A stretch of DNA of 64,000 nucleotides from Eubacteriales bacterium (GCA_045643785.1 JAZRFR010000257.1:6821-70820), one strand, 5' to 3'. Positions 6,073 through 64,000 are shown, numbered from the stretch's first letter. Numbers and translations are program-made. The notes: generated by a model not told the origin, from the letters alone.

Positions 6073-6075
6073 CTC

Positions 6076-6110: not shown

Positions 6111-6122
6111 TTACGGACAATT

Positions 6123-45000: not shown

Positions 45001-45812
45001 ATCTTACGAAGTTCCTCGGCTTCGGGGATGTTGCGAGTCTCCTCCACGTTGGTGAAGATCACGTTATCGATGTAGCCGTCGATATCCCTCATATCCAGCG
45101 AGAAGTATCCCGAGGGATATAATTTACACTGGTTTGTCTCCGCCTTCACGGCGCCGTCGGCTCCGCAAAAGGCCAAATACCCATCTTCGGAGTACTTGAC
45201 GGAGGCGATCACGGTTTCTCCGCAAGAAAGCGTGATGGTATCAAGGCCTTCATGCAGGGTAAAATTCTTCGCCTCTGCCAAAGATACGGGCATGGCAACC
45301 GTTGTCTCCAGACCACACTCGGGTTCAAAGATTCTCATAGTATCGGTACCGTCGAAGGCGAACCAGACCCCCCGCTTGGAAGTATCTGCCGCTACGCGGG
45401 AGGTGCGGACACCTAGGTATACGGTACCACCCGTGAGCTTGAGATCGAAGGACAGGTAGCCTTCCTCCAAACCGTAGTTGTCGCCCAAGCCAACGGCAGA
45501 TCCGAAGATGAAGTCCTTTCCTTCCTTGGTCGTCAGCGCCCCATCCACGATCTCGGCGTTGGCGCGGTTGCTCATGACAATGGCTGTATCGGTGGCGTAA
45601 TGGTTGATTCGATCCAGGGAAAAGTCGTATCCGTGTGTGACCAGATTACGGGTCATAAAACCGTAATCGTAGCCACCCTCATGTTCTGTAATCGCCGCGC
45701 CTCCGTAAGTCGCCGCGGGTTCTTCGGCAAACACGGTCGGGATCGTCAAAGCCGTACCAACCGTCATCAAAGCCGCCAAAACTGCGGCTGTCGTTCGTTT
45801 CCAATTTCTCAT
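42018..45812 (-). CDS. Very large secreted, C-terminally membrane-anchored protein (1264 aa), putative glycan-active enzyme
   Basis: Signal peptide AAVLAALMTVGTALTIPTVFA|EE. The central region YVGLFYFLCWVG...GVDFIYLDVSNAEV...GIDTPQIVFF looks like a TIM-barrel glycosidase. C-terminus GCGSVVIAPIVLLLAAAGFVLCRKRKE. GAAAGGAG SD. Confidence 0.55.
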   Translation of the reverse strand: MRNWKRTTAAVLAALMTVGTALTIPTVFAEEPAATYGGAAITEHEGGYDYGFMTRNLVTHGYDFSLDRINHYATDTAIVMSNRANAEIVDGALTTKEGKDFIFGSAVGLGDNYGLEEGYLSFDLKLTGGTVYLGVRTSRVAADTSKRGVWFAFDGTDTMRIFEPECGLETTVAMPVSLAEAKNFTLHEGLDTITLSCGETVIASVKYSEDGYLAFCGADGAVKAETNQCKLYPSGYFSLDMRDIDGYIDNVIFTNVEETRNIPEAEELRKIDYSTWTAHDALDRTVADNTKAGDPKDNRYVGLFYFLCWVGAGVHVQDNTKLYLELGAENAIKRIEENGGEAYWAEPYFGYYINTDTWVYRKHAYMLEQAGVDFIYLDVSNAEVFIPGHTALFDTWLAMRKEGIDTPQIVFFNGDTPSTFQSNMQKLFTTVYSDANWDKYSELFFMWEGKPLVFGNYSGLSGATKKQVDEKFTVRGSWAWTDADNYWAWLQEYIYKPESSTRVVQMRNGGWGRDGEGNFESLAVAMGHHPTMSKGRSFVNNREPNNGKGDMEFSSVEQAGKGLCFESQFGAVNYLVNENIAADDPFVMMITGWNEWIAGCFHSDTPQNMANTTAKFAYVDQFNCEFSRDGEPMRNQDGYGIGDNYYYQMVDYIRQFKGIGATPVADHQTSVNIYDISSWDKIELTYMDSLYDVEHRNTVSYDADFRYINNTGRNDFEYAKVSQDEDNLYFLIKTSHDIIIDNDTEWMNLYLNVDGDVTTGWEGYDYVLNRDRDSFVVTVEKFKDNSFESEIVGGAYFYMEGPYMTIRLPKELLGISGKLKKMIFKWADNSVKNGDPMAFMDLGDTAPDNRFGYTYICEDYETTSVAKTVLVTEEGKTSANGAVIQKPSADLDISVKDTVIDVLYDMDTMRAGTFVNNTPIAEQFEFARGTNNCTAQVMKGDAGNYLRLKGYCDLRTWNDVEGSYEFSADIHMVEYGNSAIYVRGEMPGAYVPKNPANFNVDQVFNYFEWDWYAENGGRKHGGSSTAGSGIGLYPDANAITVRIKRYAADGLGVASASYTFPYSKDFQPDANGWFKLRVVDDCEQVSIYFNDILMCSVKLENPGVVYKTDGTGQQYYGKAILCDASGKEVLTVEDTRINSSGSQIALTTRNQTMECANLYIAYASQIADGSRVETLLGGTYAEVTYTPDQRLVNTLNLGKDLPTEDETKADHDTAPMTGNGASSGDGAGTSDEPGKGQGCGSVVIAPIVLLLAAAGFVLCRKRKE

Positions 45813-49544: not shown

Positions 49545-50099
49545 ATGAAGCAATTTACCAATCTGACCAAAGCTATCCTGATCTCCGTCGCCTCCGTCAC
49601 GCTGATCTGGCTGATCTTCTCCACGGCATATACCTACACGGTATCCGAGGAAGTCACCCGACTGAGGAGGGACAGCCGCAGTGACATCGTATATCTCCGC
49701 AACCGGGTGCGTGATCTGGAAGCCGCCTTGATGCCCGACATCCCTGCAGGCGTGACCACACCTGATATGAATGCGGATGACGCGGAAAATCAGGAAACCT
49801 CGCGTCCCTCTCGGGATACTGCATCGGCAGAAACCGAGGCTGTAACCGTCCCCACCCATCAATCGCCCGAAACCCAGGTGCCTACGGTTGACAATCCCGA
49901 GACACTTCCCTCGACGGCCACGTATCTTTTCACCGAATACAACGGCATGATCGGCGTGTTTGATGCCGCAGGGGAGCTGGTGCGAACCATCAACGTATTC
50001 GTTATGACTCTTCCCGAAGCCGAAAGAGAGGCGTTATACGTAGGTATCCCCGCCTACTCCTACGCAGAAATGTGCGAGCTTGCGGAGCAGTTTGAATGA
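49545..50099 (+). CDS. Hypothetical N-terminally membrane-anchored protein
   Basis: GGAAAGGAA SD, TM helix AILISVASVTLIWLIFS, a P/T/E-rich linker and a ~60-aa C-terminal globular module. No family recognised. Confidence 0.5.
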   Translation: MKQFTNLTKAILISVASVTLIWLIFSTAYTYTVSEEVTRLRRDSRSDIVYLRNRVRDLEAALMPDIPAGVTTPDMNADDAENQETSRPSRDTASAETEAVTVPTHQSPETQVPTVDNPETLPSTATYLFTEYNGMIGVFDAAGELVRTINVFVMTLPEAEREALYVGIPAYSYAEMCELAEQFE

Positions 50100-50120
50100 T
50101 TCGGATCGCAATCCTGACAG

Positions 50121-50155
50121 AAAAAAGGTGTCATCCCATGGGATGACACCTTTTT
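50121..50155. terminator. Bidirectional rho-independent terminator
   Basis: AAAAAAGGTGTCATCC-catg-GGATGACACCTTTTT, a perfect stem flanked by A and T runs. Confidence 0.75.
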
Positions 50156-50244
50156 CGAGCCGCATATGTATCCAAAACCAGAATGCAGACGACGCAGAGA
50201 GAAGTTCGTACAGTCGATTGAATCCCGCTTTCAGAATGGGGACA

Positions 50245-50565
50245 TCAACGGTCTCTTCTTCTTGCCTCGAAGCAGGCGCTGCAGTACACAGGTCTGTCCG
50301 CGCTGGGCTGGAACGTCAGCTTAGCAACGCCACCGCAATCGGTGCAGGTTGCCTCAAAATACTGACGCTCGGGCTTACCGGCGTTCTTCTTGGCATCGCG
50401 GCAAGCCTTGCAGGTCTTGGGCTTATTCTGGAAGCCCTTCTCGGCATAGAAAGCCTGCTCGCCGGCCGTGAACACGAACTCATTGCCGCATTCCTTGCAG
50501 ACAAGGGTCTCGTCCTCGTAAACGGGAGTCTCCACGTTCGCGTCCATGATCTCATCTTCGTACAT
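50245..50565 (-). CDS. Zinc-ribbon domain-containing protein (CxxC pairs)
   Basis: LVCKECGNEFVFTAGEQAFYAEKGFQNKPKTCKACRDAKK plus a second ribbon CTDCGG...CSACF. This small protein family is common in Clostridia. Confidence 0.7.
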   Translation of the reverse strand: MYEDEIMDANVETPVYEDETLVCKECGNEFVFTAGEQAFYAEKGFQNKPKTCKACRDAKKNAGKPERQYFEATCTDCGGVAKLTFQPSADRPVYCSACFEARRRDR

Positions 50566-50680
50566 TGGTTTTTACCTCGCTTAAAATGGTTTTTGCCCCG
50601 CGGCGGACTCACACCGCCATCTCGAAGTTGGTTACCTCGCGTTCTTTTTGTACCATCGGGACATAGTACCCGCCCTTATC

Positions 50681-51292
50681 TCAATCTTCGGGCGGGGTGA
50701 GCCGCTCACGGAGCTTGCGACGAATGCGGTAGATGGCATTGTGGACAGAACGCTCGTCACGGTCAAGGTCTTTGGCAATATCCGCAACGGGCACACCCGT
50801 TACGTACTGCCACCATACGCGGTTCTCCAGTTCCGAAAGATGACCGCGAACGGTACGGCAAAGCTGGCGGAAGCGTTCGTCCTCCACCATATCGGCTCCG
50901 GGATCATACCCCTCCGTCACATCCTCTTCAGCCAACGAGACATGTGTCACGCGGCGGCGGGCATGAATATGCCGCCACTCAGAGATCAGACCGTTACGCA
51001 GGCAGATCTTGGCGTACAGGCCGAAATCCACCGCATCCTGCTCGGTGTCAAAGGAGGTAATGGCGCCCAAAAATACCCGCTCGGCCTCTTCCCGCATATC
51101 CGCCTTTTCCTGGAGAGTCATTTCCGAAGCGCCGAAACGGGCGACCGAGGATTCCAGCAGAGGACGGTATTTGGTACAGAGCGCAAGGTAAGCCTCCCGA
51201 CTACCCGCCTGCGCCTGCAAAAGCAGGTCACGCAAAGAGGAATCGGGGGTTTGAAGGGTATCCGTTTCGGATTTTGGATGAAGCTCTTTCAT
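50681..51292 (-). CDS. Sigma-70 family RNA polymerase sigma factor (ECF-like size)
   Basis: Region 2-like AITSFDTEQDAVDFGLYAKICLRNGLISEWR and a region 4 HTH VADIAKDLDRDERSVHNAIYRIRRKLRE. Start set at ATG 51292 (GAAAAGGTG SD), not the GTG at 51301. Confidence 0.75.
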   Translation of the reverse strand: MKELHPKSETDTLQTPDSSLRDLLLQAQAGSREAYLALCTKYRPLLESSVARFGASEMTLQEKADMREEAERVFLGAITSFDTEQDAVDFGLYAKICLRNGLISEWRHIHARRRVTHVSLAEEDVTEGYDPGADMVEDERFRQLCRTVRGHLSELENRVWWQYVTGVPVADIAKDLDRDERSVHNAIYRIRRKLRERLTPPED

Positions 51293-51370
51293 GCCGCGCA
51301 CCTTTTCCGCACAGAGGATTCGGTGGAGGATAATTCCCTCTTTACCGAAATTTTCTGTCCTATCAGTAAT

Positions 51371-51398
51371 ATTATATCATGAATCTGCATAATGTCAA
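51371..51398 (-). promoter_or_regulatory. Near-consensus sigma-A promoter with extended -10, upstream of the sigma-factor gene
   Basis: The minus strand reads TTGACA (51398-51393), 16 nt, TGaTATAAT (51379-51371). Confidence 0.6.
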
Positions 51399-51445
51399 GT
51401 GTATTTTTTCGTCTTTTTTTGTAAAAGGATGCCATTTTTACCAAA

Positions 51446-51489
51446 AGGCGGCTTTGCCTGTGTACAATTTACACATTCAAAGGCCGCCT
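51446..51489. terminator. Long imperfect hairpin ~160 nt downstream of ecfT (possible bidirectional terminator)
   Basis: AGGCGGCTTTG-cc-TGTGTA-caatt-TACACA-tt-CAAAGGCCGCCT. It is followed by UUUUGG on the minus strand and AAUUGUUUGUUUUG on the plus strand. Confidence 0.4.
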
Positions 51490-51648
51490 AATTGTTTGTT
51501 TTGACGGAAAACCGCGTTTCTTTTTTGGCAAAATGACTTAAAAAACAGTTAAAATTTTGTGAATATTTTTTTGACGTTTTCCGAACAAATCCAACCGTCC
51601 CGCCACTTATATCCATGAAAAACGCAATATTTCCAAAGGTTTTCGGGG

Positions 51649-52491
51649 TTACATGGTATAGAGCCAGCCGAAGCGAGCGCCGCAGATGTTGATGGCTACG
51701 ACACCGGCCACGAACAGGGCCATACCGATCAGTGTGAACACGTCACGGGCGTGATATTTGAGAACGCGGAGCTTGGTTCGTCCTTCCCCGCCGTGGTAGC
51801 AACGGCATTCCATGGCGGTTGCCAGCTCGTCGGCGCGGCGGAAGACCGATGCGAACAGCGGCACGATGATGGGAATGAGCGCCTTGGCTCTTTGCGCAAG
51901 AGAACCCTGGGTAAAGTCCGCGCCTCGCGCCTTTTGGGCAGCCATGATCTTCTCGGTCTCCTCCATGATGGTGGGGATAAAGCGCAGGGCGATAGTCATC
52001 ATCATGGCGAAGGCGTGAACAGGAACTTTGATCTTGGCCAGGGGGCGAAGCAGGCTTTCGATGGCGTCGGTGAGGGCGATGGGGGTGGTGGTGTAGGTCA
52101 GGAACAGGCTGGTTCCGATGACCATGGCCAGGATGCGCACCAGAATAAAGGCGGCATGGTAAATGCCCTTGGGATAAATGGTGATGATCCAGAAATCCAC
52201 CAGAGGCACGGCTTCTTCAGCGGTATCCACAACCCAGAATACATTCAGGATGGCCGTGAAGACCATGATGAAGATCAACGCGCGGATGGAGCGCAGAACC
52301 ACCTTCATGGGGATGCGGGAGACGAGAATCAGGGCAAAACCCGACAGGAGCAGGAGCACGAAGGAGAAGGTGTTCGTGCACAGGAACGACGCCACGATAT
52401 AGACCACGGCGGCGATGACCTTGGTGCGGGGATCCAGACGGTGAAGCAGGGAGTTGGCGGGATAGTACTGACCGAAAGCAAAGCTTTTCAT
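51649..52491 (-). CDS. ecfT: Energy-coupling factor transporter transmembrane component EcfT
   Basis: LHRLDPRTKV start, multiple TM helices, and the coupling-helix region AQKARGADF...FRRADELATAMECR. Confidence 0.88.
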   Translation of the reverse strand: MKSFAFGQYYPANSLLHRLDPRTKVIAAVVYIVASFLCTNTFSFVLLLLSGFALILVSRIPMKVVLRSIRALIFIMVFTAILNVFWVVDTAEEAVPLVDFWIITIYPKGIYHAAFILVRILAMVIGTSLFLTYTTTPIALTDAIESLLRPLAKIKVPVHAFAMMMTIALRFIPTIMEETEKIMAAQKARGADFTQGSLAQRAKALIPIIVPLFASVFRRADELATAMECRCYHGGEGRTKLRVLKYHARDVFTLIGMALFVAGVVAINICGARFGWLYTM

Positions 52492-53486
52492 GGGCGCGCC
52501 CTCCCTTCTCTGTCATTCTTTACCGAACGGAAGATTTCCATCAGCGCGTCTTCTGCGGCCTCCGTGGTGTAAAGACCGGCGGGCATAGGCATACCGCCCT
52601 CTCGCAGAAGCAGACAAAGCTTGGTGATCTGGGGAATATCCAATCCAACGGCCTCCAACTCATCGGCGCGGGCAAAAATCTCGTTTCGATCCCCTGCCAT
52701 AAGCACCTTTGCGTGAGCCATGACCACTACGTCGTCACAGTATTGGGCCATATCCTCCATGCTGTGACTGACGATGATCACGGTACAACCGGTACGGCGG
52801 TTATACTCCCGAATGCCCTGGAAAATGACGTGACGACCCTGGGGGTCCAATCCTGCGGCGGGTTCATCCAGCACCAGCACCTCGGGGCGCATGGCCATAA
52901 TGCCCGCGATGGCTACGCGACGCTTCTGGCCGCCCGAGAGGTCGAAAGGAGATTTTTCCATGAGGGCGGGGTCTACGCCTGCAAAGGCGGCGGATTCCGC
53001 AACACGCTCGCGAATCTCCTCCTCGGAAAGCTTCATGTTCTTGGGTCCAAAGGCGATATCGGCGGCTACAGTCTCCTCAAAGAGTTGGTACTCGGGGTAC
53101 TGCATGACCATGCCTACGCGGAAGCGTACCTTTCCGATCTCCTTGGGACGGGCCCAGATATCCTCGCCGTCCAGAAGCACGCGACCGGATTCGGCGCGGG
53201 TCAGGCCGTTGAGCAGTTGGATCAGGGTGGATTTTCCCGACCCCGTGTGACCGATGATGCCCGTCAGCTTCCCTGCGTGAATATCCAGAGATACCCCATC
53301 CAGAGCGCGAACCTCAAAGGGAGAGTTCTTGCCATAGATATAGGTGATATTTTCCAGGCGAAGCTTGGGATTTTCGGTTTGATTCATGATGGGAGCGGAG
53401 GTTACCGTCTCCGTATCTGTCCCGACCGCTTGAGGGTTCGGGCGGTTCTGTTTATTTCTTTTTTGCATACGATTTACGTTCCTCAC
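52488..53486 (-). CDS. ecfA: Energy-coupling factor transporter ATPase (single EcfA)
   Basis: Walker A GHTGSGKST, signature LSGGQKRRVAIAG, Walker B LVLDEPAAGLD, and the H-loop. The 4-nt overlap with ecfT is ATGA. The start is uncertain: GTG 53486 or ATG 53468. Confidence 0.85.
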   Translation of the reverse strand: MRNVNRMQKRNKQNRPNPQAVGTDTETVTSAPIMNQTENPKLRLENITYIYGKNSPFEVRALDGVSLDIHAGKLTGIIGHTGSGKSTLIQLLNGLTRAESGRVLLDGEDIWARPKEIGKVRFRVGMVMQYPEYQLFEETVAADIAFGPKNMKLSEEEIRERVAESAAFAGVDPALMEKSPFDLSGGQKRRVAIAGIMAMRPEVLVLDEPAAGLDPQGRHVIFQGIREYNRRTGCTVIIVSHSMEDMAQYCDDVVVMAHAKVLMAGDRNEIFARADELEAVGLDIPQITKLCLLLREGGMPMPAGLYTTEAAEDALMEIFRSVKNDREGRARP

Positions 53487-53538
53487 CTTTGTGAAAGGTA
53501 ATACGAGTGATTCAATAATAGCAGATCAACGCGAGCAA

Positions 53539-54294
53539 TCAGCGGAACCACTTCCCTGCTTCCACGCCCTTCTCATCGTGGAAACCGATACGGAGGATGC
53601 GGTACCATACCTCGTCCAGGGCGCCGTCCTCGGAGAGGATGCCCAGTTTATCCCGCATAGCCTTAATGAGGTATTCGGGATTGAGGTTTTCGGTGTTGCC
53701 CGCGCGGAGGGTAGCACGGAGCTTGATGAGGCCATCGGCGGCCACGGCCTTAACCGAATGGATCATGGGGAGGATGTTGACCTCCTTATCACCCGACTTG
53801 GAACGCTTGGTCATGACGATGGGCTCTGCGTCGGAGGCGAACATAGCATTGATGGCGCCCGCGTTGTCAATGGGATCGCCGGGGGTCTTGATGGTCATCT
53901 GGTAGGTACCCCACGCGATATCCGAGAAGGCGGTCTTGGGGATATAGACCTCCGAGACCTGCATTTCGGAAGTGAGTTCTGCGTTGAGCTGGGCCTTGAT
54001 CTCGGCGGGGGTGATCTCACGGTCGATACGGAGATCCACCATCTCCTCCATGCCCTCGGAGCCTACGGGCAGGGGCACGCCGAAGACGATCTTACTGTGG
54101 GGGTTGAAGCCCTGGGTGTACCACATGGGGATGGAAGCGCGAACCAGGACTCTCTGCCAGGTACGCTGGAGGTCGAGGTGGGAGAAGTACTGGAGGTTGC
54201 CCGTCTTTTGGAATACTACACGCACCGTAATGGGCGCGTCCAGCATGGGGCGGTCAAACTTGGAAATACGGTTCAGTTTTTCTTGGGACAGCAT
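53539..54294 (-). CDS. TIGR03936 family radical SAM-associated protein (DUF2344)
   Basis: VRVVFQKTGNLQYFSHLDLQRTWQRVLVRASIPMWYTQGFNPHSKIVFGVPLPVG. The ATG at 54294 has a GGAGG SD (54308-54304) inside the upstream gene, giving a 22-nt overlap. Confidence 0.8.
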   Translation of the reverse strand: MLSQEKLNRISKFDRPMLDAPITVRVVFQKTGNLQYFSHLDLQRTWQRVLVRASIPMWYTQGFNPHSKIVFGVPLPVGSEGMEEMVDLRIDREITPAEIKAQLNAELTSEMQVSEVYIPKTAFSDIAWGTYQMTIKTPGDPIDNAGAINAMFASDAEPIVMTKRSKSGDKEVNILPMIHSVKAVAADGLIKLRATLRAGNTENLNPEYLIKAMRDKLGILSEDGALDEVWYRILRIGFHDEKGVEAGKWFR

Positions 54295-56132
54295 GCGCGC
54301 TCACCTCCCATCTTATTGGCCCCGCAGCCCGAGCAGTTCTCACGGCAGTTGGGGGTGGTGTTCCCCTCATGAGCCTTGGCGTTTTCTCTCTGCAGGAATT
54401 TCTTGGTCACGCCGCAGTCGATGATATCCCAAGGCAGGACTTCATCCAGACCGTAGCGGCGGTTGGCATAGAAAGCGGGATCGATGCCGGTTTCAGCAAA
54501 GATCTCCATCCACCCCTCATAGTTGAAGAACTCCGACCAAGCTTCGAACTTATAGCCACGGCGGCAGGCCTCTTCCAGAGCGGGAGCGAGGCGGCGGTCA
54601 CCGCGGGCAAAGACTGCCTCCAGATGGCAGGTCTTGGCGTTGTGGTAGTTATACTTCACGCGGCGGTCGTGGACGCAGGAGCCCACGAAGGCCTGCTTGC
54701 GCTCCATTTCCTCCAGGGTATCCTGAGGCTCCCACTGGAAGGGGGTGAAGGGCTTGGGGATGAAGGGGGACACGCTGATGGTAACCTGGGCGTGCTGACC
54801 CTTGCGGCGGTTGGGATTCTGGTAGTAGGCGGACACCACGCGGTGGGCCAACTCGGGAATTTCCGCCAGATCCTCGTCGGTCTCGGTGGGGTGACCCTGC
54901 ATGAAGTAGAGCTTCACTTGATTCTTGCCCACGTCGAAGGCCACGTTGACGGCGCGCATGAGATCCTCCTCGTAGAGGTTCTTGTTGATAACGTCGCGGA
55001 GGCGCTGGGAGCCTGCCTCGGGGGCAAAGGTGATGGTGGAATTGCGGATGGAGGCCACCTTATCCATGAGCTCGCGGGTGAAGGAGTCGGCGCGCAGAGA
55101 GGGCAGGGACAGGCTGACCATGTTGGGGTTCGACCAGGACAGCAGGCTGTCGGTCAGCTCGTTTACCTTGGTGTAGTCGCTGATGGACAGGGAGGACAAG
55201 GACATTTCCTCATAGCCCGAGGACTCGAAGATGGCGCGGCACTGGCAGTCTACCACCTCGGGAGACTTTTCCCGGACGGGGCGGTAGACCATACCTGCCT
55301 GGCAGAAGCGGCAGCCGCGGATACAGCCGCGACCCACCTCTACGGTGATGCGATCCTGCACCGTCTCGATGTAGGGCATGACCACCTTATCGGGGAAAGG
55401 CGTCTTGTCCAGATCCTCCACGATGCGCTTAGTGACCGTCTTGGGAATATCGTCGTATACGGGGGTGTAGGCGGCCACAGTGCCGTCTTCGTTGTAGGTG
55501 ACGGTGTAGAGAGAGGGGACGTACACACCTCGGATGGTACGGGCGGCCTCATGCAGGAAGGCGGCGCGGGTATAGGTTCCCTCGTCCTTCATCTTGATAT
55601 AGAGGCGGACGATCTCGGGGAGCATTTCCTCGCCCTCACCGATATTGAAGAGGTCGAAGAAGTCAGCCACGGGCTCGGGGTTATAGGAACAGGGGCCGCC
55701 GCCGATGACCAGAGGACAATCCTCACCGCGGTCTGCCGCACGCAGGGGGATCTTCGAAAGCTCCAGCATATTCAGCACGGTGGTGTAGCACATTTCGTAC
55801 TGGAGGGTAAAGCCCAGGAAATCGAAATCGGCAACGGGGTCGCCGCTCTCCAGACAGGTAAGGGGCACGTTCTGCTCCTTCATCTTCTCCTGCATATCCA
55901 CCCAGGGGGCGTAGGTGCGCTCGCACCAGATGTCATCGTGGAGGTTGAGGCAATGGTAGAGGATGCGGACGCCCAGGTTGGACATACCGATCTCGTAGGA
56001 ATCGGGGAAAGCAAAGGCAAAGCGTGCCTTGACCGTGTTCTTGTCCTTGATGATCTGACCGTACTCACCGCCCGCGTAGCGACCGGGACGGGAGACAGAG
56101 GTCAGAAGCATGCGTTTTTCGTTTTGGTTCAT
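54273..56132 (-). CDS. TIGR03960 family B12-binding-domain radical SAM protein
   Basis: SRPGRYAGGEYG start, an N-terminal B12-like domain, the radical SAM cluster GRGCIRGCRFCQAG, and 619 aa in length. Confidence 0.85.
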   Translation of the reverse strand: MNQNEKRMLLTSVSRPGRYAGGEYGQIIKDKNTVKARFAFAFPDSYEIGMSNLGVRILYHCLNLHDDIWCERTYAPWVDMQEKMKEQNVPLTCLESGDPVADFDFLGFTLQYEMCYTTVLNMLELSKIPLRAADRGEDCPLVIGGGPCSYNPEPVADFFDLFNIGEGEEMLPEIVRLYIKMKDEGTYTRAAFLHEAARTIRGVYVPSLYTVTYNEDGTVAAYTPVYDDIPKTVTKRIVEDLDKTPFPDKVVMPYIETVQDRITVEVGRGCIRGCRFCQAGMVYRPVREKSPEVVDCQCRAIFESSGYEEMSLSSLSISDYTKVNELTDSLLSWSNPNMVSLSLPSLRADSFTRELMDKVASIRNSTITFAPEAGSQRLRDVINKNLYEEDLMRAVNVAFDVGKNQVKLYFMQGHPTETDEDLAEIPELAHRVVSAYYQNPNRRKGQHAQVTISVSPFIPKPFTPFQWEPQDTLEEMERKQAFVGSCVHDRRVKYNYHNAKTCHLEAVFARGDRRLAPALEEACRRGYKFEAWSEFFNYEGWMEIFAETGIDPAFYANRRYGLDEVLPWDIIDCGVTKKFLQRENAKAHEGNTTPNCRENCSGCGANKMGGERACCPKKN

Positions 56133-56162
56133 GATATGAGATAATTCCTTATTGATGTAGTG

Positions 56163-59100
56163 TCATGGGTTTTTGTTTTTTTCGGGTTTCGCTTCGGTAT
56201 TGGAAGCGGTTTTCGCTGTTTCAGGCTCGGCAGACAGGCTTCCCACCGTAGCGTAGCTCACGGCAAGCATACTGCCCATACCCAAAAGCTGCCACAGGGT
56301 CAAGATCCCCGAGGACAGTAAGGCGATTCCGCCAAGGCTGACGGCCAACGCCGACAGACCGACCGAGGCGAGCAGGCCAAGCCAGCTGATCAGGTGCGCT
56401 TTCCGATAGGCGCGCTTCATTTTCCGACAGGCGATCAGCGGTTGGAGAAGGTCCAGGCTTCGTCCGGTCACGATCAATCCACCGGAGCAGATCTCGCGGA
56501 TGGGCTCGTATTCGGCAGGGCGAAGCACTTCGATGGGAGTGCGGCGACGCAAACGGTTGATTCCCTCCATATCGGTATCCACGAGGGGATCAAAGGAGGA
56601 CAGCGACACGCGGTATCCCATATCCGACAGGATCATGGCCGTTTTCGCAAAGGTGCGTCCCACTCGGTATTCAACGGCGTACGCCAGATGGAAATTCCGA
56701 TTGAACGCAACGTACAGCACGTGGCTTCCCGCGCTCTTCTTATACCGTTGCTCCATACCGATCTTGGGCAATCGGATGCCCCGATGGGTCAAAGCCTCGT
56801 GGGAGCCCATCATGATCTCGGTGGTGCGCTCAGTCTCATCGTCCATCAGGTATAGACGAACATATTCATTTTGGATCTCGGCAATATCGATCCGATAGCC
56901 GTCCAGACTCCGATTCTGGAGAGTCGGCTCCACGGCGAGAGGGGTGTCCAGCAAACGGAAGATCACGTCTGCCGTACGGCGGCTGTCCGCGGAATCGTCG
57001 TCGCCACGCAACGTAACGTCCTTTCGGTACAGTGCCTTCAGCGCGTGACCGTCGGCAAAGATAACGTGCGCGGATTGTTTGCCTGCGTATTCCACGGGAG
57101 CTGCCGTGCCGATCACAGCCGCCCCTTTGTTTTCCAGGATGCCGTTAGCACGGAACAGCGGAAGCGTCAGGGCCACGATATACGCGGCGGGCAGACAGGC
57201 CAGGTAGGTGGCGGTAAACACCTGCATACCCTCCGTCCAGATGCCGTCCCCCAGAATCAAGGCCAGACCGGCGCAAACGATGGAACACAAAAGCGCTACG
57301 GGGAGCATGTAGTTGAGCCGCCCCATATAGGGATTATAGCGGCGCGTACGGGCAAAGTAATCCGCTACGCGTCGGGCGCGAACTACCGTCAGAACGGTTT
57401 GTTCATCGGGGGGGACGCGGGTTTGCCCGTCCTCTGCCTGTCGGGACAGTTTCTGGCGAAGGGCGGAGGCGGACGGGGTGGATTCGCTCGTCAAAACACG
57501 GGCGAGCTTGCCGGATGAGACGACCGTAAAGGCACGGTGTTCGCCTTCGGTCACCAAATACTCCGAAAGAGACGCAAAGGACAGCATCAGGAGCGCAACG
57601 CCACCAAACAAAGGCAAGCTGTAGGGATCTCCGGCAAAGCAGGCCGCGCCGCTGTGAAGCAGGGATATCAGAATTGCCGTTCCCGATACGGTATAGCGGG
57701 TGGGCTCGAAATCCAAAAGGCTCTTGATCCCCTTGAACAGGCGAGTCAGGAAGGGCAGGCAGACCAACAGCGTCCCAAGCAAACCAACGGGGGCGTACAG
57801 GGATGCATACGACAGTGCCAATTCGCTGTCCGACGGGATGATGAGCGGCAAAAGGTCGTATATAATCGCCACGAATCCGCCGATAACGGCATACAGAAGA
57901 CGGAAGAAATTCCATCTGCGCGCTTTGACGTATGCTTTTTCTACGGCAGAAGTATCCTCGCGGCCGCGGTATTCCCGCTTGAAGCGTACCGAGCAAACCT
58001 CGCCGGTCTGTCTCGTTTCCCGTGTCTCGTGTTGACGGGTACGCAACAGCTCGATCTGCGCCTGCTCGTCGGAATGCCGCATGGCTTCTTCGTAGCCGAG
58101 ATGGAGACAGAGACCCATATCCTGCAGGGATTCTTCGGTTCCCTCTTGCGTACGGATATGCGGGTAATCGTTCCCCTCCGTAACTTCATCGGGGTCGGAG
58201 ATATCGGATGCCATACTGATTTCATGGCGCTTTTTACTCTTGACGGTGGGGGAAACATCGTCAAGACCCAACTGCAAGGGATCGTGGATCTGCTTAGCCT
58301 GACGACGGGAGGTCGTTGAAGACTCCCTTGTTTCGGACGCACCGAGATCCTCGGTAGCGTTCTCCGATTCGGGATCCACTTGGTCTCGAATGGCGGCGGA
58401 GTCGTCGTCAAGAGATAGATCTCTGACGGTCGCAAAGGCTTCTTCCTCCAGGAGTCTGGCGTTTTCATCCGAAATCGCCTTGAGGCGCGGGCCGCCTACC
58501 ATATCGGAAAACACCAAACCGTTCAAGAGGTCATCGGTCAGGCGTTCCGCCTCGGGACGACGGTATTCTCCCGTCGGCTTTGTCCGATATACGGGTGCAT
58601 CTATGGACTGTTCCGCGACATCCGCGATCGCCGCGTTGGTTTCTGTTTCCTCGGAGTAGTCTTCCTCGATTTCCTCGGAGTAGTCTTCCTCGGTATCCTC
58701 GGGGTAGTCTTCTTCGGTGTCCTCGGAGTAGTCTTCCTCGGTATCCTCAGGGTAGTCTTCCTCGGTGTCTTCGGAGTAGTCTTCTTCGGTTTCCTCGGAG
58801 TAGTCTTCCTCGGTGTCCTCGGAGTAGTCTTCTTCGGTGTCTTCGGAGTAGTCTTCCTCGGTGTCTTCGGAGTAGTCTTCCTCGGTGTCTTCGGAGTAGT
58901 CTTCCTCGGTGTCTTCGGAGTAGTCTTCTTCGGTGTCTTCGGAGTAGTCTTCTTCGGTGTCTTCGGAGTAGTCTTCTTCGGTGTCTTCGGAGTAGTCTTC
59001 TTCGGACTCGCTGTCTTCTTCGAGTACACCGTCTACTGCGAATTCATCGTCGATTTCATCTTCATCGAATTCTTCCTCGTCATCGAATTCTTCTTCGAAC

Positions 59101-59309
59101 TCAGATGTATCCAAGGAATCCATCAATGATGTGTTTTCTGTACTTTTCCCCAGTTGCGCGCGAAGCAACGCGGCCAGGTCATCATCGGTATGATCCGTAT
59201 CCGTGTCGGATTCGGAATATCCCTCGCTCATGGATGCTTTCAGCTTTTCAGCCCAATCCACGGATGTATCTTCCGGATTCTTTTTCGATTTTTTTCTCGG
59301 CTCGGACAA
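56163..59309 (-). CDS. 1048-aa protein: hyper-acidic repeat-containing N-terminal region fused to a multi-TM core resembling a degenerate P-type ATPase
   Basis: TTG start with a GGGAGGG SD. D/E blocks plus 15 x EEDYSEDT. Multiple TM helices from ~aa 480. Segments LACLPAAYIVALTLPLF...NGILENKGAAV...VIFADGHAL, SLSSFDPLVD and GGLIVTGRSLDLLQPL occupy the order of the CPC, DKTGT, TGDN and GDGxND motifs. Confidence 0.6.
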   Translation of the reverse strand: MSEPRKKSKKNPEDTSVDWAEKLKASMSEGYSESDTDTDHTDDDLAALLRAQLGKSTENTSLMDSLDTSEFEEEFDDEEEFDEDEIDDEFAVDGVLEEDSESEEDYSEDTEEDYSEDTEEDYSEDTEEDYSEDTEEDYSEDTEEDYSEDTEEDYSEDTEEDYSEDTEEDYSEETEEDYSEDTEEDYPEDTEEDYSEDTEEDYPEDTEEDYSEEIEEDYSEETETNAAIADVAEQSIDAPVYRTKPTGEYRRPEAERLTDDLLNGLVFSDMVGGPRLKAISDENARLLEEEAFATVRDLSLDDDSAAIRDQVDPESENATEDLGASETRESSTTSRRQAKQIHDPLQLGLDDVSPTVKSKKRHEISMASDISDPDEVTEGNDYPHIRTQEGTEESLQDMGLCLHLGYEEAMRHSDEQAQIELLRTRQHETRETRQTGEVCSVRFKREYRGREDTSAVEKAYVKARRWNFFRLLYAVIGGFVAIIYDLLPLIIPSDSELALSYASLYAPVGLLGTLLVCLPFLTRLFKGIKSLLDFEPTRYTVSGTAILISLLHSGAACFAGDPYSLPLFGGVALLMLSFASLSEYLVTEGEHRAFTVVSSGKLARVLTSESTPSASALRQKLSRQAEDGQTRVPPDEQTVLTVVRARRVADYFARTRRYNPYMGRLNYMLPVALLCSIVCAGLALILGDGIWTEGMQVFTATYLACLPAAYIVALTLPLFRANGILENKGAAVIGTAAPVEYAGKQSAHVIFADGHALKALYRKDVTLRGDDDSADSRRTADVIFRLLDTPLAVEPTLQNRSLDGYRIDIAEIQNEYVRLYLMDDETERTTEIMMGSHEALTHRGIRLPKIGMEQRYKKSAGSHVLYVAFNRNFHLAYAVEYRVGRTFAKTAMILSDMGYRVSLSSFDPLVDTDMEGINRLRRRTPIEVLRPAEYEPIREICSGGLIVTGRSLDLLQPLIACRKMKRAYRKAHLISWLGLLASVGLSALAVSLGGIALLSSGILTLWQLLGMGSMLAVSYATVGSLSAEPETAKTASNTEAKPEKNKNP
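58644..59003 (-). repeat. Tandem repeat, 15 units x 24 bp, in-frame (EEDYSEDT)n
   Basis: The forward-strand unit is GGTGTCTTCGGAGTAGTCTTC(C/T)TC. I counted the units by hand. The seven units at 58836-59003 differ only at one synonymous C/T position. Confidence 0.95.
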
Positions 59310-59355
59310 GTCAGTCCCTCCCTTCTTGTTGAGATCAGGGGTTCGCTTCGTTTAT

Positions 59356-60375
59356 TTATTCTTTATGATGCTGACGGGCGATCTCTGCCAGAATGACCGA
59401 AGCGGCGGTGGAGACGTTGAAGGAATTGACGTGACCGTACATGGGAATGGACACGATGCCATCGCAGGCATCCTTCACCACGCGGGATACGCCGTCCCCT
59501 TCGCTGCCCATGACCAGAGCGCAGGGACCGTCAAAGTTGGTGTTGTAGTGGGCAGAACCTCCTGCCTCGGCGGCGTAGACCCACACACCTGCCTTTTGCA
59601 GATCGAGGATGGTCTGGTGAACGTTGGCTACTTTGGCTACCGCCAGGTGCTCCATGGCCCCTGCGGAGGACTTGGCGACCAGCGCGGTCAGACCGACGGC
59701 GCGACGGCGGGGGATAATGAGGCCGTGAGCGCCACAGCCCTCGGCGCAACGGATCAGCGCGCCCAGATTGTAGGGATCGGTGATTCCGTCGGCAATGACG
59801 ATGAAGGGCTTCTCGCCGCGCTCGGCGGCGATGGCCAGGATATCCTCTACGGTGCAGTACTCCTTTTGAGCCACCATGGCAATGACGCCCTGATGAGGCA
59901 CGAAGCCTGCCAGACTATCCAGCTTGGCCTTGTCCACCTCCACCACGGGAATTCCCTTCTCCACGGCTTCGGCCACCAGCACCACGATGGAGCCTTCTCT
60001 GTCCCCGCGGCGTACCAAAAGCTTGTCAACGGTACGGTCGGAGCGGAGCAGTTCACGGACGGCGTTACGGCCAATCACCAAACCCTCTGCTTCGGGATCG
60101 GGGGTGTTGCCGTCTTCCTCGTCCATACGGTCATCAAAGCGGTCGTATTGCTTTTTGTCGTGGGGCTTGTATTCGTTACGGGGACGGTCGCCATAGGGCT
60201 TTTTATCGTAGGGCTTTTTCTCATTTCTGTCGTAAACGGGCTTTCCATCCTTGCGGGGGCGATCGCCTGCAGGGGTAAAGTTTCGATCCGCAGGATATTT
60301 TTTCGTTCCCTTACCGCTATTGCCCTCGGATTTGTAGGGCTTTTTATTCTTGTTCTCGTTGTTATTATAAGCCAT
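59356..60375 (-). CDS. rlmB: 23S rRNA (guanosine-2'-O)-methyltransferase RlmB (SpoU/TrmH family) with a ~95-aa basic low-complexity N-terminal tail
   Basis: GRNAVRELL, HQGVIA, DGITDPYNLGALIRCAEG, LVMGSEGDGVS and IPMYGHVNSFNVSTAASVIL motifs. Start ATG 60375 (GAAAGGA SD), not the track start at 60663. Confidence 0.85.
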   Translation of the reverse strand: MAYNNNENKNKKPYKSEGNSGKGTKKYPADRNFTPAGDRPRKDGKPVYDRNEKKPYDKKPYGDRPRNEYKPHDKKQYDRFDDRMDEEDGNTPDPEAEGLVIGRNAVRELLRSDRTVDKLLVRRGDREGSIVVLVAEAVEKGIPVVEVDKAKLDSLAGFVPHQGVIAMVAQKEYCTVEDILAIAAERGEKPFIVIADGITDPYNLGALIRCAEGCGAHGLIIPRRRAVGLTALVAKSSAGAMEHLAVAKVANVHQTILDLQKAGVWVYAAEAGGSAHYNTNFDGPCALVMGSEGDGVSRVVKDACDGIVSIPMYGHVNSFNVSTAASVILAEIARQHHKE

Positions 60376-60520
60376 GGTGAATCCTTTCAAAAAAAGATAT
60401 TTATATACAGAGTATATTATAGCATAAAAAAAGACTTTTGTATAGATGTTTTTCGGATTTTTTACAAAAAACCTCAAAAAGAAAAAGAGCGACCCGTATG
60501 TGGCGGGTCGCTCAAGCTTA

Positions 60521-62500
60521 TTACTTCTTCTTGGGTACGAACATGCGGAAATCAAACTGTCTCGGCACGTCGATATCGGCATCCTCCAAGGTTTTGCCCT
60601 CGGCGGCGGCTTTGGCCTTCTGAATCTCGATATACAGGGCGGTGAGGGAGATCTCACCCTCACGGATATCCGTAACCGCCAGGCCGCCGTCGCGCCAAAG
60701 AACAGCCTCGGCGGCGGTAATCTGATTCGTACGGAGCAGGGCGAAGGCGTAGGTCATGGCTACGCGGCCGTCGGCTTGCACCTTTGCGGGGGAGGTTTCA
60801 TAGGCGGTGATGATGGCGTCGTGCTTCCCTGCGCGGAGGGCGAGGGCGAGAGACTGGCGCGCCAAGGACACGTCGGAGGGCAGAAGTCGGTAGGCTTCCA
60901 GCGCCGTATCGGCGGCGGTGGAGACGTCCCCCTTCATGCGATGAATCTGCGCCTTGAGGAACAGGGCAATGGGGGTGATGGCAAAAGTCATGGCCTCGGT
61001 CAGCGCCTCATCGGCATCGCGGAGATTGCGCTCGGCCATATAGACGGCGGCAAGATGGAGGTACTTTTCGTGGCAGGGAGAGGATTTCTCCAGCATGTTT
61101 GTCCATTCCTTTTGGAGCATCCAGGAAACGGGGGGCAGGGTCTTGTCGCCATCCTGCACCATGATTCCATTTTCCATGAGAGAGAGCCACGGGGTTTGCT
61201 CGTCGGTCAGCTCACCGAAGTCCAGATGGGCGCAGACGGGAGTCTCACCGTTCTTTTCGCGGCGGAGGTTTTCCAGTTTACCCCAAGCGGAGCCGTAGCA
61301 GATCTGCTTCTTTGCGGGAGCCAGGGCCATGGGCTTGGTGGCGGCCAGCATGTCCTCCAGCTTGGCTTCGGGGATGAGGGCTTCCAATTTCTCGCCTACC
61401 TCGGCGCGGCAGTCTGCCCAGTCGCCGTGTACCTTATCGGGGTCGGCGCTGACGGCGCCGAAGGCCTCCAGCCACTCCCATGCGGTCTTGGGAGGCATGG
61501 GGAGACACTCGTACTGGGTGTGGGCAACGCCCGCCTGGATCTCTACGTAGCGGCCGTCGTGACCGTCCTGCGTGAGGAATTCCTGCCAGCGTCTACCACC
61601 TTCGCCCTGTCCCCAGACGAAGAGCTTACGGCCCTGCAGACGAGGAGTGGAGGTCTGGAAGAAGCCGTAGCCCTCACGGTCGATGTAGGCGGTGTACTTG
61701 CGATTCTCCTTGGGGATCTTCCAGAAGTAGTCAATGGCTACGGGGTTATTGGAGGGGTAGGTAATGTCGATACCGCGATCGTAGGGGACGGGGTTCTTGC
61801 CCACCATGCCGTCGCGGTTGTTGTAGGTCTCGGTGGCGTCGATGACGTCGCGGGCTTCGGGATTCTCACGGACGGCCATATTCGTCCACCAGTACATGGG
61901 GACGGTGTCGGCGGTAGGATTGACAATGCGCATACGGCCAAAGAGCTGCCTTGAGTCCTCGGGAAGGAAGAAATCCATCTGGTAGACACAGGCGCGGATG
62001 CGCTCATACTCGTACATACGGAGAACGGGGGTGCCGTCCTCCAGCGCGGTCTCGGCGGCGTGGATGCGGGAGCAGGTGAAGGGATGGTGACCCACCATAC
62101 CGCAGTTGAACTCGATACCGCCAGCCAGCCAGGCGTTGCGGACAGCCAGGTTACAGGGACGCACCACGGGATTATCGTAGAGGAGGTGCTTCCCTGCTAC
62201 CTTGTCGTAGAGCGACCACAGACGGCCGCCCAGCTCGGGGAGAAACAGGGCTTTCAGGTATTGGTTTTCCAGCACAACGCCGATATAGGGTGTCAGATCC
62301 TCGGAGCGGTCGTAGAGATCCTGCATGCGGTAGGGGAAGATGGAGGGGAGGAAGCCGTAGCCTACGAACAGCTCGTCGTCCTCGTCCAGGGCGGAGCGGG
62401 TCAGGCCTTGGACGTTGGACATTTCGTAGAGGGAGGGGAGGGTGGATTCGCCGTTGAATTTCGCAGAGGGGAGGAGAACTTCGCATACGGTGAGGGACAT
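60521..62500 (-). CDS. DUF5107-like domain protein with C-terminal TPR-like helical repeats
   Basis: VRNAWLAGGIEFNCGMVGHHPFT and surrounding segments match my recollection of DUF5107. The C-terminal ~200 aa is helical-repeat-like. GGAGC SD. Confidence 0.5.
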   Translation of the reverse strand: MSLTVCEVLLPSAKFNGESTLPSLYEMSNVQGLTRSALDEDDELFVGYGFLPSIFPYRMQDLYDRSEDLTPYIGVVLENQYLKALFLPELGGRLWSLYDKVAGKHLLYDNPVVRPCNLAVRNAWLAGGIEFNCGMVGHHPFTCSRIHAAETALEDGTPVLRMYEYERIRACVYQMDFFLPEDSRQLFGRMRIVNPTADTVPMYWWTNMAVRENPEARDVIDATETYNNRDGMVGKNPVPYDRGIDITYPSNNPVAIDYFWKIPKENRKYTAYIDREGYGFFQTSTPRLQGRKLFVWGQGEGGRRWQEFLTQDGHDGRYVEIQAGVAHTQYECLPMPPKTAWEWLEAFGAVSADPDKVHGDWADCRAEVGEKLEALIPEAKLEDMLAATKPMALAPAKKQICYGSAWGKLENLRREKNGETPVCAHLDFGELTDEQTPWLSLMENGIMVQDGDKTLPPVSWMLQKEWTNMLEKSSPCHEKYLHLAAVYMAERNLRDADEALTEAMTFAITPIALFLKAQIHRMKGDVSTAADTALEAYRLLPSDVSLARQSLALALRAGKHDAIITAYETSPAKVQADGRVAMTYAFALLRTNQITAAEAVLWRDGGLAVTDIREGEISLTALYIEIQKAKAAAEGKTLEDADIDVPRQFDFRMFVPKKK

Positions 62501-62536
62501 AAGGGGTGCTCCTTTCGGTTTTGGTATGGGAATCGG

Positions 62537-63400
62537 TTAGACTAAAACCTGTTGATAGACTTCGTTTTTCGGCACGCCTCGATCCTTGGCGGCGGCCTTG
62601 ATGGCGTCCTTTTTGGTCATGCCCTGCTCCACATAGTGGGCTACGTGGTCGGGAATACTCATATTCGTCCAGAAGGCTTCGGATGCGGTACTTCCCTCCT
62701 GCGCGCCCTCCACAACGAGAACGTATTCTCCGCGGGGGGCGTTCTCCTCGTAGTAGGCGACCGCTTCGGCAAGGGTCAGGCGCAGAACCTCCTCATTGAG
62801 CTTGGTGAGCTCTCTACAGAGGGAGATGCGGCGGTCGTCACCAAAGGCATCTCGGAAATCGGAAAGGGTTGTCTTGAGTTTATGAGGGGCTTCGTGGAAG
62901 ATCATGGTGCGGGGCTCGTTTTTGAGGGAGTCCAGATGCTTCTTGCGGTCGGATTTGTTCACCGACAGGAAGCCCTCGAAGGTGAAGCGTCCCGTGGGAA
63001 GTCCCGACAGGGTCAAGGCGGTGATGCCCGCGCAACAGCCGGGAATGGAGGTGACGGTAATTCCCTTTTCAGCGCAAAGAGCAACCAGATCCTCGCCGGG
63101 GTCGGAGATGGCGGGGGTGCCCGCATCGGTGACCAGGGCGCAGGATTCTCCGGCCTGCAGGCGGTCGCAGATCTGCTCACCGCGCTCCCGCTTGTTATGC
63201 TCATGGTAGGAGACCAGAGACTTTTGAATTTGCAGGTATGACAGAAGATGCCCCGTATTGCGGGTATCCTCGGCGGCGATGAAGTCCACCTCGGTAAGCA
63301 CTTTGACGGCTCGTTCGGAAAGATCGGCCAGATTTCCGATGGGGGTGGCAACGAGGTAGAGGGTGGAGGGCATGATCTGATTTTTTTCAGAAATAGGCAT
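62537..63400 (-). CDS. rsmI: 16S rRNA (cytidine1402-2'-O)-methyltransferase RsmI
   Basis: LYLVATPIGNLADLSERAVKVLTEVDFIAAEDTR, HEHN and FHEAPHKL motifs. GGAAGGAGC SD. Confidence 0.9.
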   Translation of the reverse strand: MPISEKNQIMPSTLYLVATPIGNLADLSERAVKVLTEVDFIAAEDTRNTGHLLSYLQIQKSLVSYHEHNKRERGEQICDRLQAGESCALVTDAGTPAISDPGEDLVALCAEKGITVTSIPGCCAGITALTLSGLPTGRFTFEGFLSVNKSDRKKHLDSLKNEPRTMIFHEAPHKLKTTLSDFRDAFGDDRRISLCRELTKLNEEVLRLTLAEAVAYYEENAPRGEYVLVVEGAQEGSTASEAFWTNMSIPDHVAHYVEQGMTKKDAIKAAAKDRGVPKNEVYQQVLV

Positions 63401-63501
63401 GGAATTGCTCCTTCCATATTTTGCTTTTGCACCGTCCCGATTTCAGGTGCATACAATGTCACAAAGACTCTATACCCATATTGTACCACAAAGGAGGCAG
63501 T

Positions 63502-64000
63502 ATGTCAATCAAAATTTACATTGATCAGGGACATAATCCCGTAAATCCCAACGCGGGGGCCGAGGGAAACGGGCTCCGCGAGCAGGATCTGGTCTATACC
63601 ATCGGTCAGCGGCTGGCGGATCTTCTGCGGGCGAACCCCGATTACGAGGTACGGCTGTCCCGTCCCACGAGAGAGTCCCAGCTGGGAACCTCCACGGGCA
63701 CCAGCCTGTCGGCGCGGGTCAACGAGGCCAATCGGTGGGGCGCGGACTACTTCATCAGCCTACATACCAACGCGGCGTCCTCCCCTTCTGCCAGCGGTTC
63801 GGAGGCCTACGTGTACGATCGGAATTCCCGCGCCTTTGGATTCGCCAGCGATATTCTGACGAATCTGACCGACGTAACGGGGCTTCGTGACCGCGGGGTG
63901 GCTTCGCGGCCGGGGCTGTACGTTCTGCGTAAAACACAAATGCCCGCAACTCTTGTGGAACTGGGCTTCATCACCAACCCCGGCGATGCTACCCTCATGC
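63502..64000 (+). CDS. N-acetylmuramoyl-L-alanine amidase (Amidase_3 / CwlD-like), 3'-truncated by window edge
   Basis: Not in the ORF track because it has no stop inside the window. AAAGGAGG SD plus ATG 63502. My hand translation reads MSIKIYIDQGHNP...GADYFISLHTNA...GSEAYVY...RPGLYVLRKTQMPATLVELGFITNPGD, a classic Amidase_3 pattern. Confidence 0.85.
   Translation, partial: MSIKIYIDQGHNPVNPNAGAEGNGLREQDLVYTIGQRLADLLRANPDYEVRLSRPTRESQLGTSTGTSLSARVNEANRWGADYFISLHTNAASSPSASGSEAYVYDRNSRAFGFASDILTNLTDVTGLRDRGVASRPGLYVLRKTQMPATLVELGFITNPGDATLM

Follow-up and report, generated by a model that had tools for sequence, protein, structure and literature searches.

The motif DKTGT defines the P-type ATPase superfamily. 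Within it, the P1B-1 Cu(I)-ATPases (LpCopA, 3RFU/4BBJ; AfCopA, 7R0G and 3J08; EcCopA; human ATP7B) are the closest known systems to a protein of 1048 amino acids (aa) encoded at 56163..59309, minus strand, in a 64,000-nucleotide (nt) stretch from an Eubacteriales bacterium (GCA_045643785.1 JAZRFR010000257.1:6821-70820; "the window", from whose first letter positions are counted). A preliminary description of this stretch had taken the gene product for a chimera of a hyper-acidic N-terminus and a catalytically dead P-type ATPase core. Like CopA, the protein has the transmembrane (TM) helices MA, MB and M1 to M6, the proline in M4, headpiece inserts between M2 and M3 and between M4 and M5, and the folds of the phosphorylation (P) and nucleotide-binding (N) domains. 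A VE.LG-like region, the TGD strand, YVAxDG and a linker from the actuator (A) domain to M3 with a conserved Pro are collinear with those of CopA. Unlike CopA, the family to which the protein belongs is without DKTGT, TGES, GDGxNDxP, the His of SEHPL, GxG, CPC, YN and MxxSS. Its A domain comprises 67 aa, the HMA domains are replaced by approximately 385 aa of polyanionic disorder and ordered juxtamembrane helices, and the Pfam models E1-E2_ATPase and Hydrolase stay below threshold on the family members scanned.

The nearest conceptual precedent is provided by alveolate chimeras of a P4-ATPase and a guanylate cyclase, in which a P-type ATPase module is also retained within a larger protein; some of their lineages (Cryptosporidium, GC-beta, gregarines) show changes of the Asp in DKTGT and of the Glu in the A domain (PMC13466520). 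These chimeras are eukaryotic, derived from P4 flippases and fused to a cyclase, and their degeneration is partial and lineage-restricted (PMC13466520), whereas the bacterial family is P1B-derived, has no attached catalytic domain and is without the motifs throughout. A bacterial precedent for a pseudo-P-type ATPase was not found in the searchable literature. A further likeness exists to soluble HAD phosphatases and mutases, with which the family shares the pattern h-h-h-x-D-x-[D/E]-h, an S/T ending the next P-domain strand and a later K/R plus acidic residue, in the order of motifs I to IV. Unlike in the soluble enzymes, the site is part of a P-type body that also comprises eight TM helices and an N domain, an acid pair of motif IV is not recognisable, the window protein has His at position +2, and no HAD Pfam model scores.

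Relationship to P1B-type ATPases

The protein has diverged far from the P1B-type heavy-metal P-type ATPases, of which it is a paralogue, and the homology of its C-terminal core to these pumps is established by fold, profile and topology. Its homologs fall into two tiers, of which tier 1 includes the window protein and tier 2 shares about 20% identity with that protein. Single-sequence searches with the whole protein and with its C-terminal 579 aa gave no match in Pfam, NCBIfam or the PDB sequences, and the matches of a tier-1 profile (A1) among the PDB sequences were nothing but low-complexity noise, caused by the acidic N-terminus. A HMMER profile of both tiers (A3) matched LpCopA (3rfu) in the same sequence set with an E-value of 6.6e-9 and a near-gapless alignment from M3 to TGD, followed by AfCopA (approximately 1e-3), ATP7B, CadA and Na,K-ATPases. 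With hhalign, a 184-sequence family profile was placed with positions 1 to 579 on residues 184 to 834 of EcCopA (Prob 96.9, E 2.7e-10), which is the whole pump core after the two HMA domains; reversed and shuffled CopA controls reached E-values of 0.07 to 0.7. Family and CopA align collinearly all the way through MA to M6, and the landmarks (M4 Pro, VE.LG-like region, TGD, YVAxDG) come in the same order in both.

The structural evidence agrees with the profiles. An AF2 model of the last 579 aa, built on an alignment of the 56 homologs of the first search, had a predicted local distance difference test (pLDDT) score of 89 and a predicted template modelling score of 0.86. All top 50 Foldseek matches of this model in the PDB were P-type ATPases, the best being AfCopA (7r0g; E 2.2e-10, template modelling score 0.55), followed by ATP7B, LpCopA (4bbj/3rfu), KdpB and ZntA. 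The resemblance of aa ~480 to 1048 to P-type ATPases, first noticed by eye, is thus significant by profile, hhalign and Foldseek. Domain models recorded little of it: none of the window protein and 53 relatives scanned reached the Pfam threshold (best P-type match in one member, PF00122, E 0.17), no P-type domain was found by Pfam in ten tier-2 members, and the window protein had no match in NCBIfam or PADLOC.

Eight TM helices are predicted by hydrophobicity and AF2, the first beginning at aa 466, close to the start at about aa 480 given before. The insert after TM helix 4 is small and that after TM helix 6 is large, which corresponds to the P1B plan of MA, MB and M1 to M6; with the collinear alignment to the CopA core, this bears out the P1B landmark order. 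MA, MB, M1 and M2 extend over aa 466 to 597 (57519..57914; this and all following parts of the gene lie on the minus strand), including a DFEPTRY loop aligned to the P1B "NMD" region (AF2, hydrophobicity, HMMER and hhalign). The A-domain stump follows at aa 598 to 664 (57318..57518; AF2 and hhalign), then M3 and M4 at aa 665 to 726 (57132..57317; family alignment and HMMER), the P and N domains at aa 727 to 950 (56460..57131; AF2, Foldseek, HMMER and hhalign), and a helix leading into M5, M5 and M6 at aa 951 to 1026 (56232..56459; AF2, hydrophobicity and hhalign).

Gene calling and translation gave the 1048-aa open reading frame (ORF) that had been reported, on the minus strand (59309..56163) with a TTG start and a TGA stop. 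On inspection, a strong Shine-Dalgarno site (AAGGGAGGG, 59316..59324) is present about 7 nt 5' of the TTG. The long reading frame with TTG is correct, because the family motif VDWAE begins at aa 17 and precedes the first internal Met, which is found only at aa 27. The strings quoted in the preliminary description (TYLACLPAAYIVALTLPLF, NGILENKGAAV...VIFADGHALKA, SLSSFDPLVD and GGLIVTGRSLDLLQPL) were all recovered at their places in the translation. On the plus strand, long antisense ORFs extend across 56394-59332, e.g. one of 250 aa with SSLPR-type repeats at 58580-59332; they mirror the codon repeats of a gene rich in GC and are not themselves genes.

The family is large. Full-library HMMER with the C-terminal profile, with clusters at 50% identity, gave 1877 clusters at E <= 1e-3 and 319 clusters at E <= 1e-30, while all 56 sequences of the first homolog search were unnamed. 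The listed full-length members consist of a variable N-terminus followed by a module of approximately 550 aa. Members with a named source come from metagenome-assembled genomes of Clostridia, Eubacteriales or Oscillospiraceae, from animal guts where stated, and all are annotated as "hypothetical". The ratio of non-synonymous to synonymous substitution rates (dN/dS), obtained from a codon comparison with a single locus encoding an 87%-identical relative (L015), was 0.07 for the ordered core (aa 385 to 1026), 0.044 for the P and N domains, 0.029 for the A-domain stump and 0.06 to 0.12 for the TM core. The phosphorylation site is remodelled and not decayed, with a core dN/dS of 0.07 and pocket residues that persist family-wide.

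It is extremely improbable that the gene is a decaying pseudogene or that the similarity is a spurious one of a helical membrane protein with a Rossmann-like domain. The lack of any matching curated family model and template modelling scores of only about 0.5 would fit such an explanation. However, the 1048-aa frame is intact and preceded by a strong Shine-Dalgarno site, the core is under purifying selection in a family of 1877 clusters, and the MA to M6 alignment has its landmarks in order, while the reversed and shuffled controls fail. The explanation is effectively refuted by profile, hhalign, controls and dN/dS.

Loss of the pump motifs

The strand that carries the phosphorylated Asp in P1B pumps (vvFDKTGTL) is replaced by VIFADGHAL (aa 749 to 757, 57039..57065), as placed by HMMER, hhalign and the family alignment. 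The earlier reading of this string in the place of FDKTGTLT, with no Asp in a DKTGT context, was reproduced by HMMER and hhalign, and DKTGT was found at this site in none of 285 homologs. The site reads F-A-D-G-H-A in the window protein and follows the pattern h-x-D-x-[D/E]-h in the family. In the P1B register of HMMER and hhalign, the column of the phospho-Asp is module position 283 (A752) and variable. A first hhalign run of profile A1 against EcCopA alone (Prob 1%), which aligned RKDVTL to DKTGTL, was rejected; HMMER, the broader hhalign, segment lengths and the AF2 secondary structure place VIFADGHAL there.

The actuator domain is reduced, as had been supposed: the M2-M3 insert has 67 aa compared to approximately 135 in CopA, and the part of CopA that bears TGE falls in a gap of the hhalign alignment. 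The first hairpin of the domain and the linker to M3 are retained (ARTRRYNPYMGR, cf. AQxSKAPIQ, with the conserved Pro). The segment LTSES (aa 606 to 610) was considered as a surviving TGES and rejected; T-[D/S]-E (607 to 609) is conserved in tier 1 only and is not aligned to TGE.

GDGxNDxP is also gone, since GDGINDAPAL of CopA falls in a gap of the family-versus-CopA alignment. The string named as its replacement (GGLIVTGRSLDLLQPL) is present, but the segment equivalent to the motif was not located, and a profile of the region after TGD (A5) found neither a P-type ATPase nor a HAD protein among the PDB sequences. Between TGD and M5, the P domain is approximately 34 aa shorter than in LpCopA by a residue count. 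In the N domain, the window protein has Thr in the His column of SEHPL, where tier 1 has C, S or T and tier 2 has G. GxG is lost, and the one invariant position is the Gly of "GN" (G835). An intact DKTGT, TGES and GDGxND set was therefore not overlooked, with no DKTGT in 285 homologs and the other two motifs in alignment gaps.

The Pro in M4 is the universal Pro of P-type ATPases. Here it is P707, conserved in 89 of 90 tier-1 and 94 of 94 tier-2 sequences, so that the CPC region is replaced only in part: the flanking Cys pair is not kept, M4 reading C705-L-P707 in the window protein and [SCTA]-x-P in tier 2. Structurally and by descent, the family belongs to the P-type ATPase superfamily; in the functional sense it does not, on account of DKTGT, TGES, GDGxNDxP and the nucleotide site.

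The former phosphorylation pocket and proposed function

Polar residues kept in both tiers are D284, the acidic residue at 286, S/T436, D438, P439, K/R461, P462 and E466 (module numbering, D284 being D753 of the window protein). They cluster at the old phosphorylation pocket, and their order mirrors that of HAD motifs I to IV. As a family-wide HAD-type signature, D284 is present in approximately 90%, the acidic +2 residue in approximately 80%, S/T436 in at least 90%, K/R461 in at least 82% and E466 in at least 89%, with no clear motif IV. In the window protein the last of these residues belong to R930-P931-x-x-x-E935 (56505..56522; family alignment and hhalign), which is kept in both tiers and lies close to where P1B pumps have the "P-x-x-K" motif.

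The best-supported explanation, to be given fair probability, is that the family consists of P1B-derived membrane proteins that do not pump but are scaffolds or sensors, with a remodelled pocket for a ligand and a polyanionic tether, and that act together with the flanking RNA-modification and radical S-adenosylmethionine (radical-SAM) genes. The architecture of a pump is kept (eight TM helices, M4 proline, P domain, N domain and A stump) and the sequence machinery of the Post-Albers cycle is lost, with DKTGT changed to A-D-G-H-A and the TGES core, GDGxNDxP, the SEHPL His and GxG missing. Most likely such a protein does not pump but acts as a sensor or scaffold anchored in the membrane. The old pocket (D-x-[D/E], [S/T]-[Y/F]-D-P, [K/R]-P and E) probably binds a ligand, e.g. 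Mg2+ or a phosphoryl-like group. The disordered polyanionic N-terminus of approximately 385 aa takes the position of the HMA domains; it would project into the cytoplasm and serve there as an electrostatic tether or sink, acting on cations or basic partners. The gene is probably expressed with the flanking rlmB and radical-SAM pair and its product would act with theirs.

Several observations weigh against this assignment. D284 is conserved in 80 of 90 tier-1 and 85 of 94 tier-2 sequences, although the P1B register puts it on the Lys column, and position 286 (755 in the window protein) is D or E in approximately 80% of the family, the classical DxD pattern of HAD enzymes; in the window protein and its two closest relatives this +2 residue is His. 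In P2-type pumps ("V-I-C-S-D-KTGT"), the Asp stands one residue further from the hydrophobic strand than it does in P1B pumps ("V-V-F-D-KTGT"). D753 may be on the catalytic position, because "L-I-F-x-D" of the family matches the P2 spacing. The SLSSFDPLVD string was correctly placed at TGDN (S905-F-D907-P908, 56586..56597; family alignment and HMMER), and G and N are replaced, but the S/T and D of TGD are retained, S/T, D and P being nearly invariant. An enzymatic activity retained in non-canonical form would likewise agree with the very strong purifying selection seen in the P and N domains. Beyond the pocket, synteny alone is no proof of a functional link to the rRNA-modification genes.

The first of these points would fit a family that is still an enzyme, in which a classical HAD-type site has re-formed in the P domain (motif I D-x-[D/E], motif II S/T, motif III K/R, motif IV E or D) and the protein acts as a membrane-embedded phosphatase or phosphotransferase, or as a pump with a non-canonical cycle. 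With an acidic residue at +2 the aspartyl-phosphate would hydrolyse itself, which would make the TGES actuator domain dispensable. Besides the frequencies of D284 and of the acidic residue at 286 in both tiers, T/S436, D438, K/R461 and E466 are each present in at least 82% in both tiers, D473 is found in 84 of 94 tier-2 sequences, dN/dS of the P and N domains is 0.04, and, from general knowledge of the P2-type "ICS-D-KTGT" spacing, "IF-x-D" allows a catalytic placement of the Asp. However, in the window protein position +2 is His (D-G-H) and position 473 is Ser, the GDGxND strand with its Mg2+ ligands is missing in hhalign, neither the His of the nucleotide site nor GxG is conserved, both HMMER and hhalign align D284 to the Lys and not to the Asp column, and the profile of the region after TGD retrieves neither P-type ATPases nor HAD proteins from the PDB sequences. 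On balance, an enzyme of this kind is on the unlikely side.

A new mechanistic class, in which phosphoryl chemistry or ligand binding at a HAD-type D-x-[D/E] site is coupled to the eight-helix membrane domain and the polyanionic tail, and which would form the membrane partner of TIGR03960/TIGR03936 and of rRNA-modification enzymes, is considered unlikely. For the scaffold or sensor proposed above, the designation "catalytically dead" has to be narrowed. The canonical DKTGT, TGES and GDGxNDxP are absent, and it is a reasonable inference from these motifs that the protein is dead for ATP-driven pumping, whereas the conserved Asp, the S/T and D of TGD and a dN/dS of approximately 0.04 in the P and N domains would be compatible with non-canonical HAD-like chemistry or ligand binding.

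The acidic N-terminal region

The polyanionic N-terminal region (aa 1 to 384, 58158..59309; full-length AF2 and composition) is predicted to be disordered, with pLDDT below 50 in the full-length AF2 model (overall pLDDT 74) apart from three short helices (aa 19 to 28, 44 to 57 and 274 to 299). D and E account for 35% of aa 1 to 469, with a net charge of -123, and for 61% of aa 100 to 225, where K and R are absent. The 15 EEDYSEDT repeats counted before (aa 103 to 222, 58644..59005) were found again: EEDY[SP]E[DE][TI] matches exactly 15 times, and a tandem repeat search gave a 24-nt array of 14.8 copies with 93% matches (Tandem Repeats Finder score 563; 58651-59005). Two conserved helix motifs, VDWAEKLKAS (aa 17 to 28, 59226..59261) and DDLAALLRAQL (aa 41 to 57, 59139..59189), were identified by homolog alignment and full-length AF2. 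An ordered juxtamembrane helical region (aa 385 to 469, 57903..58157; full-length AF2, motif survey and dN/dS) with pLDDT values of 81 to 91 runs into MA; it shows a dN/dS of 0.095 and has no counterpart in CopA. It carries the LGYE motif (aa 404 to 407), which is common to both tiers (65 of 99 tier-1 and 77 of 103 tier-2 proteins).

Net-negative N-termini were found in 99% of tier 1 (median -61) and in 74% of tier 2. The acidic disordered N-terminus belongs to the family as a whole and did not arise by a recent fusion; the term "chimeric" is overstated. Acidic tandem repeats with unrelated units are present in 19 of 174 homologs (e.g. DEPEIED, LLDEEDEE, IEVIEEP and EDFDENIEEDYPEE), and in the 87%-identical relative (L015, 4783-5415) EELTDEEEFDD-type repeats replace EEDYSEDT. 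Since the units differ even among close relatives, selection acts on the composition of the N-terminus and not on its sequence. The dN/dS of the disordered N-terminus in the same codon comparison was 0.30. The repeat region of L015 is interrupted by a scaffold gap of 100 N, so that P0001 and P0002 (820 and 804 aa) are truncated gene calls. In the tier-2 locus L013, EEPIVEEPIV... acidic repeats were called as a separate ORF of 341 aa (5949-6974) directly upstream of the family module; this ORF carries a DDLAALL-like N-terminal motif, and the neighbouring family member has a short N-terminus. The arrangement is either a genuine split gene or the result of a frameshift or assembly error.

The tail occupies the position of the N-terminal metal-binding domains of P1B pumps, which would be compatible with a passive cation pathway or store. 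The TM domain would then conduct or bind metal without ATP, and the acidic tail would replace the HMA domains as a high-capacity, low-affinity binder of Mg2+, Ca2+ or Fe; by this means, cations needed in ribosome assembly or by the radical-SAM enzyme could be delivered or buffered. The net charge of -123 in aa 1 to 469, the absence of K and R from the repeat block, the purifying selection on the TM core (dN/dS 0.06 to 0.12) and the conservation of C236, H503 and Q538 in M4 to M6, seen within tier 1 only, are in line with this explanation. It is nevertheless judged quite improbable. Apart from the M4 prolines, no polar TM residue is kept in both tiers, the CPC, YN and MxxSS metal ligands are absent, and the variation of the repeat units among close relatives suggests selection on composition and not on a defined binding site. 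Furthermore, the operon contains no metal-related gene, and an Rfam scan of 50000-64000 revealed no riboswitch.

Genes flanking the pump relative

All neighbours described in this paragraph are encoded on the minus strand. Upstream of the gene, rlmB (23S rRNA Gm2251 2'-O-methyltransferase; family search) is located at 59356..60375, with the likely start Met at 60375. Downstream, a B12-binding radical-SAM gene (TIGR03960; 54273..56132, NCBIfam, 912 bits) starts with an ATG 30 nt after the stop, and it is overlapped by 22 nt by a TIGR03936/DUF2344 radical-SAM-associated gene (53539..54294; NCBIfam and Pfam). The position of the gene directly upstream of this pair, with the 30-nt spacer, was as originally described. 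A promoter-like site (TATACA-17-TATAAT with TG, 60416..60444; consensus match only) is the probable start of the unit formed by rlmB, the family gene and the radical-SAM pair, and a terminator-like hairpin (60513-60487) lies upstream of it, ahead of rlmB.

The order of rlmB, family gene, TIGR03960 radical-SAM gene and DUF2344 gene was found in 10 of 10 loci (named: the window, L001, L002 and L013 to L018), across tiers sharing only approximately 20% identity. In L013 (9190-11799), the radical-SAM and DUF2344 proteins are fused to one protein of 869 aa. This fusion and the 22-nt overlap in the window are consistent with an obligate two-part enzyme of TIGR03960 and TIGR03936. The tier-2 loci L016 to L018 encode a PseudoU_synth_2 pseudouridine synthase downstream of DUF2344, a KsgA-type RrnaAD methyltransferase is found nearby in L016 and L017, and the window encodes RsmI upstream (62537-63400). 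This richness in rRNA-modification genes hints at an RNA substrate for the TIGR03960/TIGR03936 pair. In the literature on TIGR03960, TIGR03936 and DUF2344, nothing relevant was found for bacteria.

RlmB of the window has a low-complexity N-terminal extension of approximately 100 aa (~60090-60375), which is absent from the typical RlmB of approximately 245 aa. Such extensions, with (D/E)KKPY-type repeats and a conserved GTKKYPADRNFTP motif, are also found in L001, L004 to L006, L011 and L012. A basic RlmB extension covarying with the acidic tail was considered and rejected; the extension is of mixed charge (net +1 to +12) and gave no clear signal. Further away in the window (42018-45812, minus strand), a secreted protein of 1264 aa is encoded, with a signal peptide, a C-terminal hydrophobic anchor and apparently glycoside-hydrolase-like or carbohydrate-binding regions, which is unrelated to the P-type relative.

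Implications

The fast turnover of the acidic repeats is a practical problem, as they break short-read assemblies and gene calls and distort the length statistics of the family. A large P1B-descended family without DKTGT, TGES and GDGxNDxP, and with a core dN/dS of 0.07, points either to a "pseudo-pump" or to the body of a pump that has been rebuilt for a different task. Its position between rlmB and the radical-SAM genes provides the first consistent membrane-protein partner for a widespread uncharacterised radical-SAM system, and thereby a handle on the role of the TIGR03960/TIGR03936 pair.

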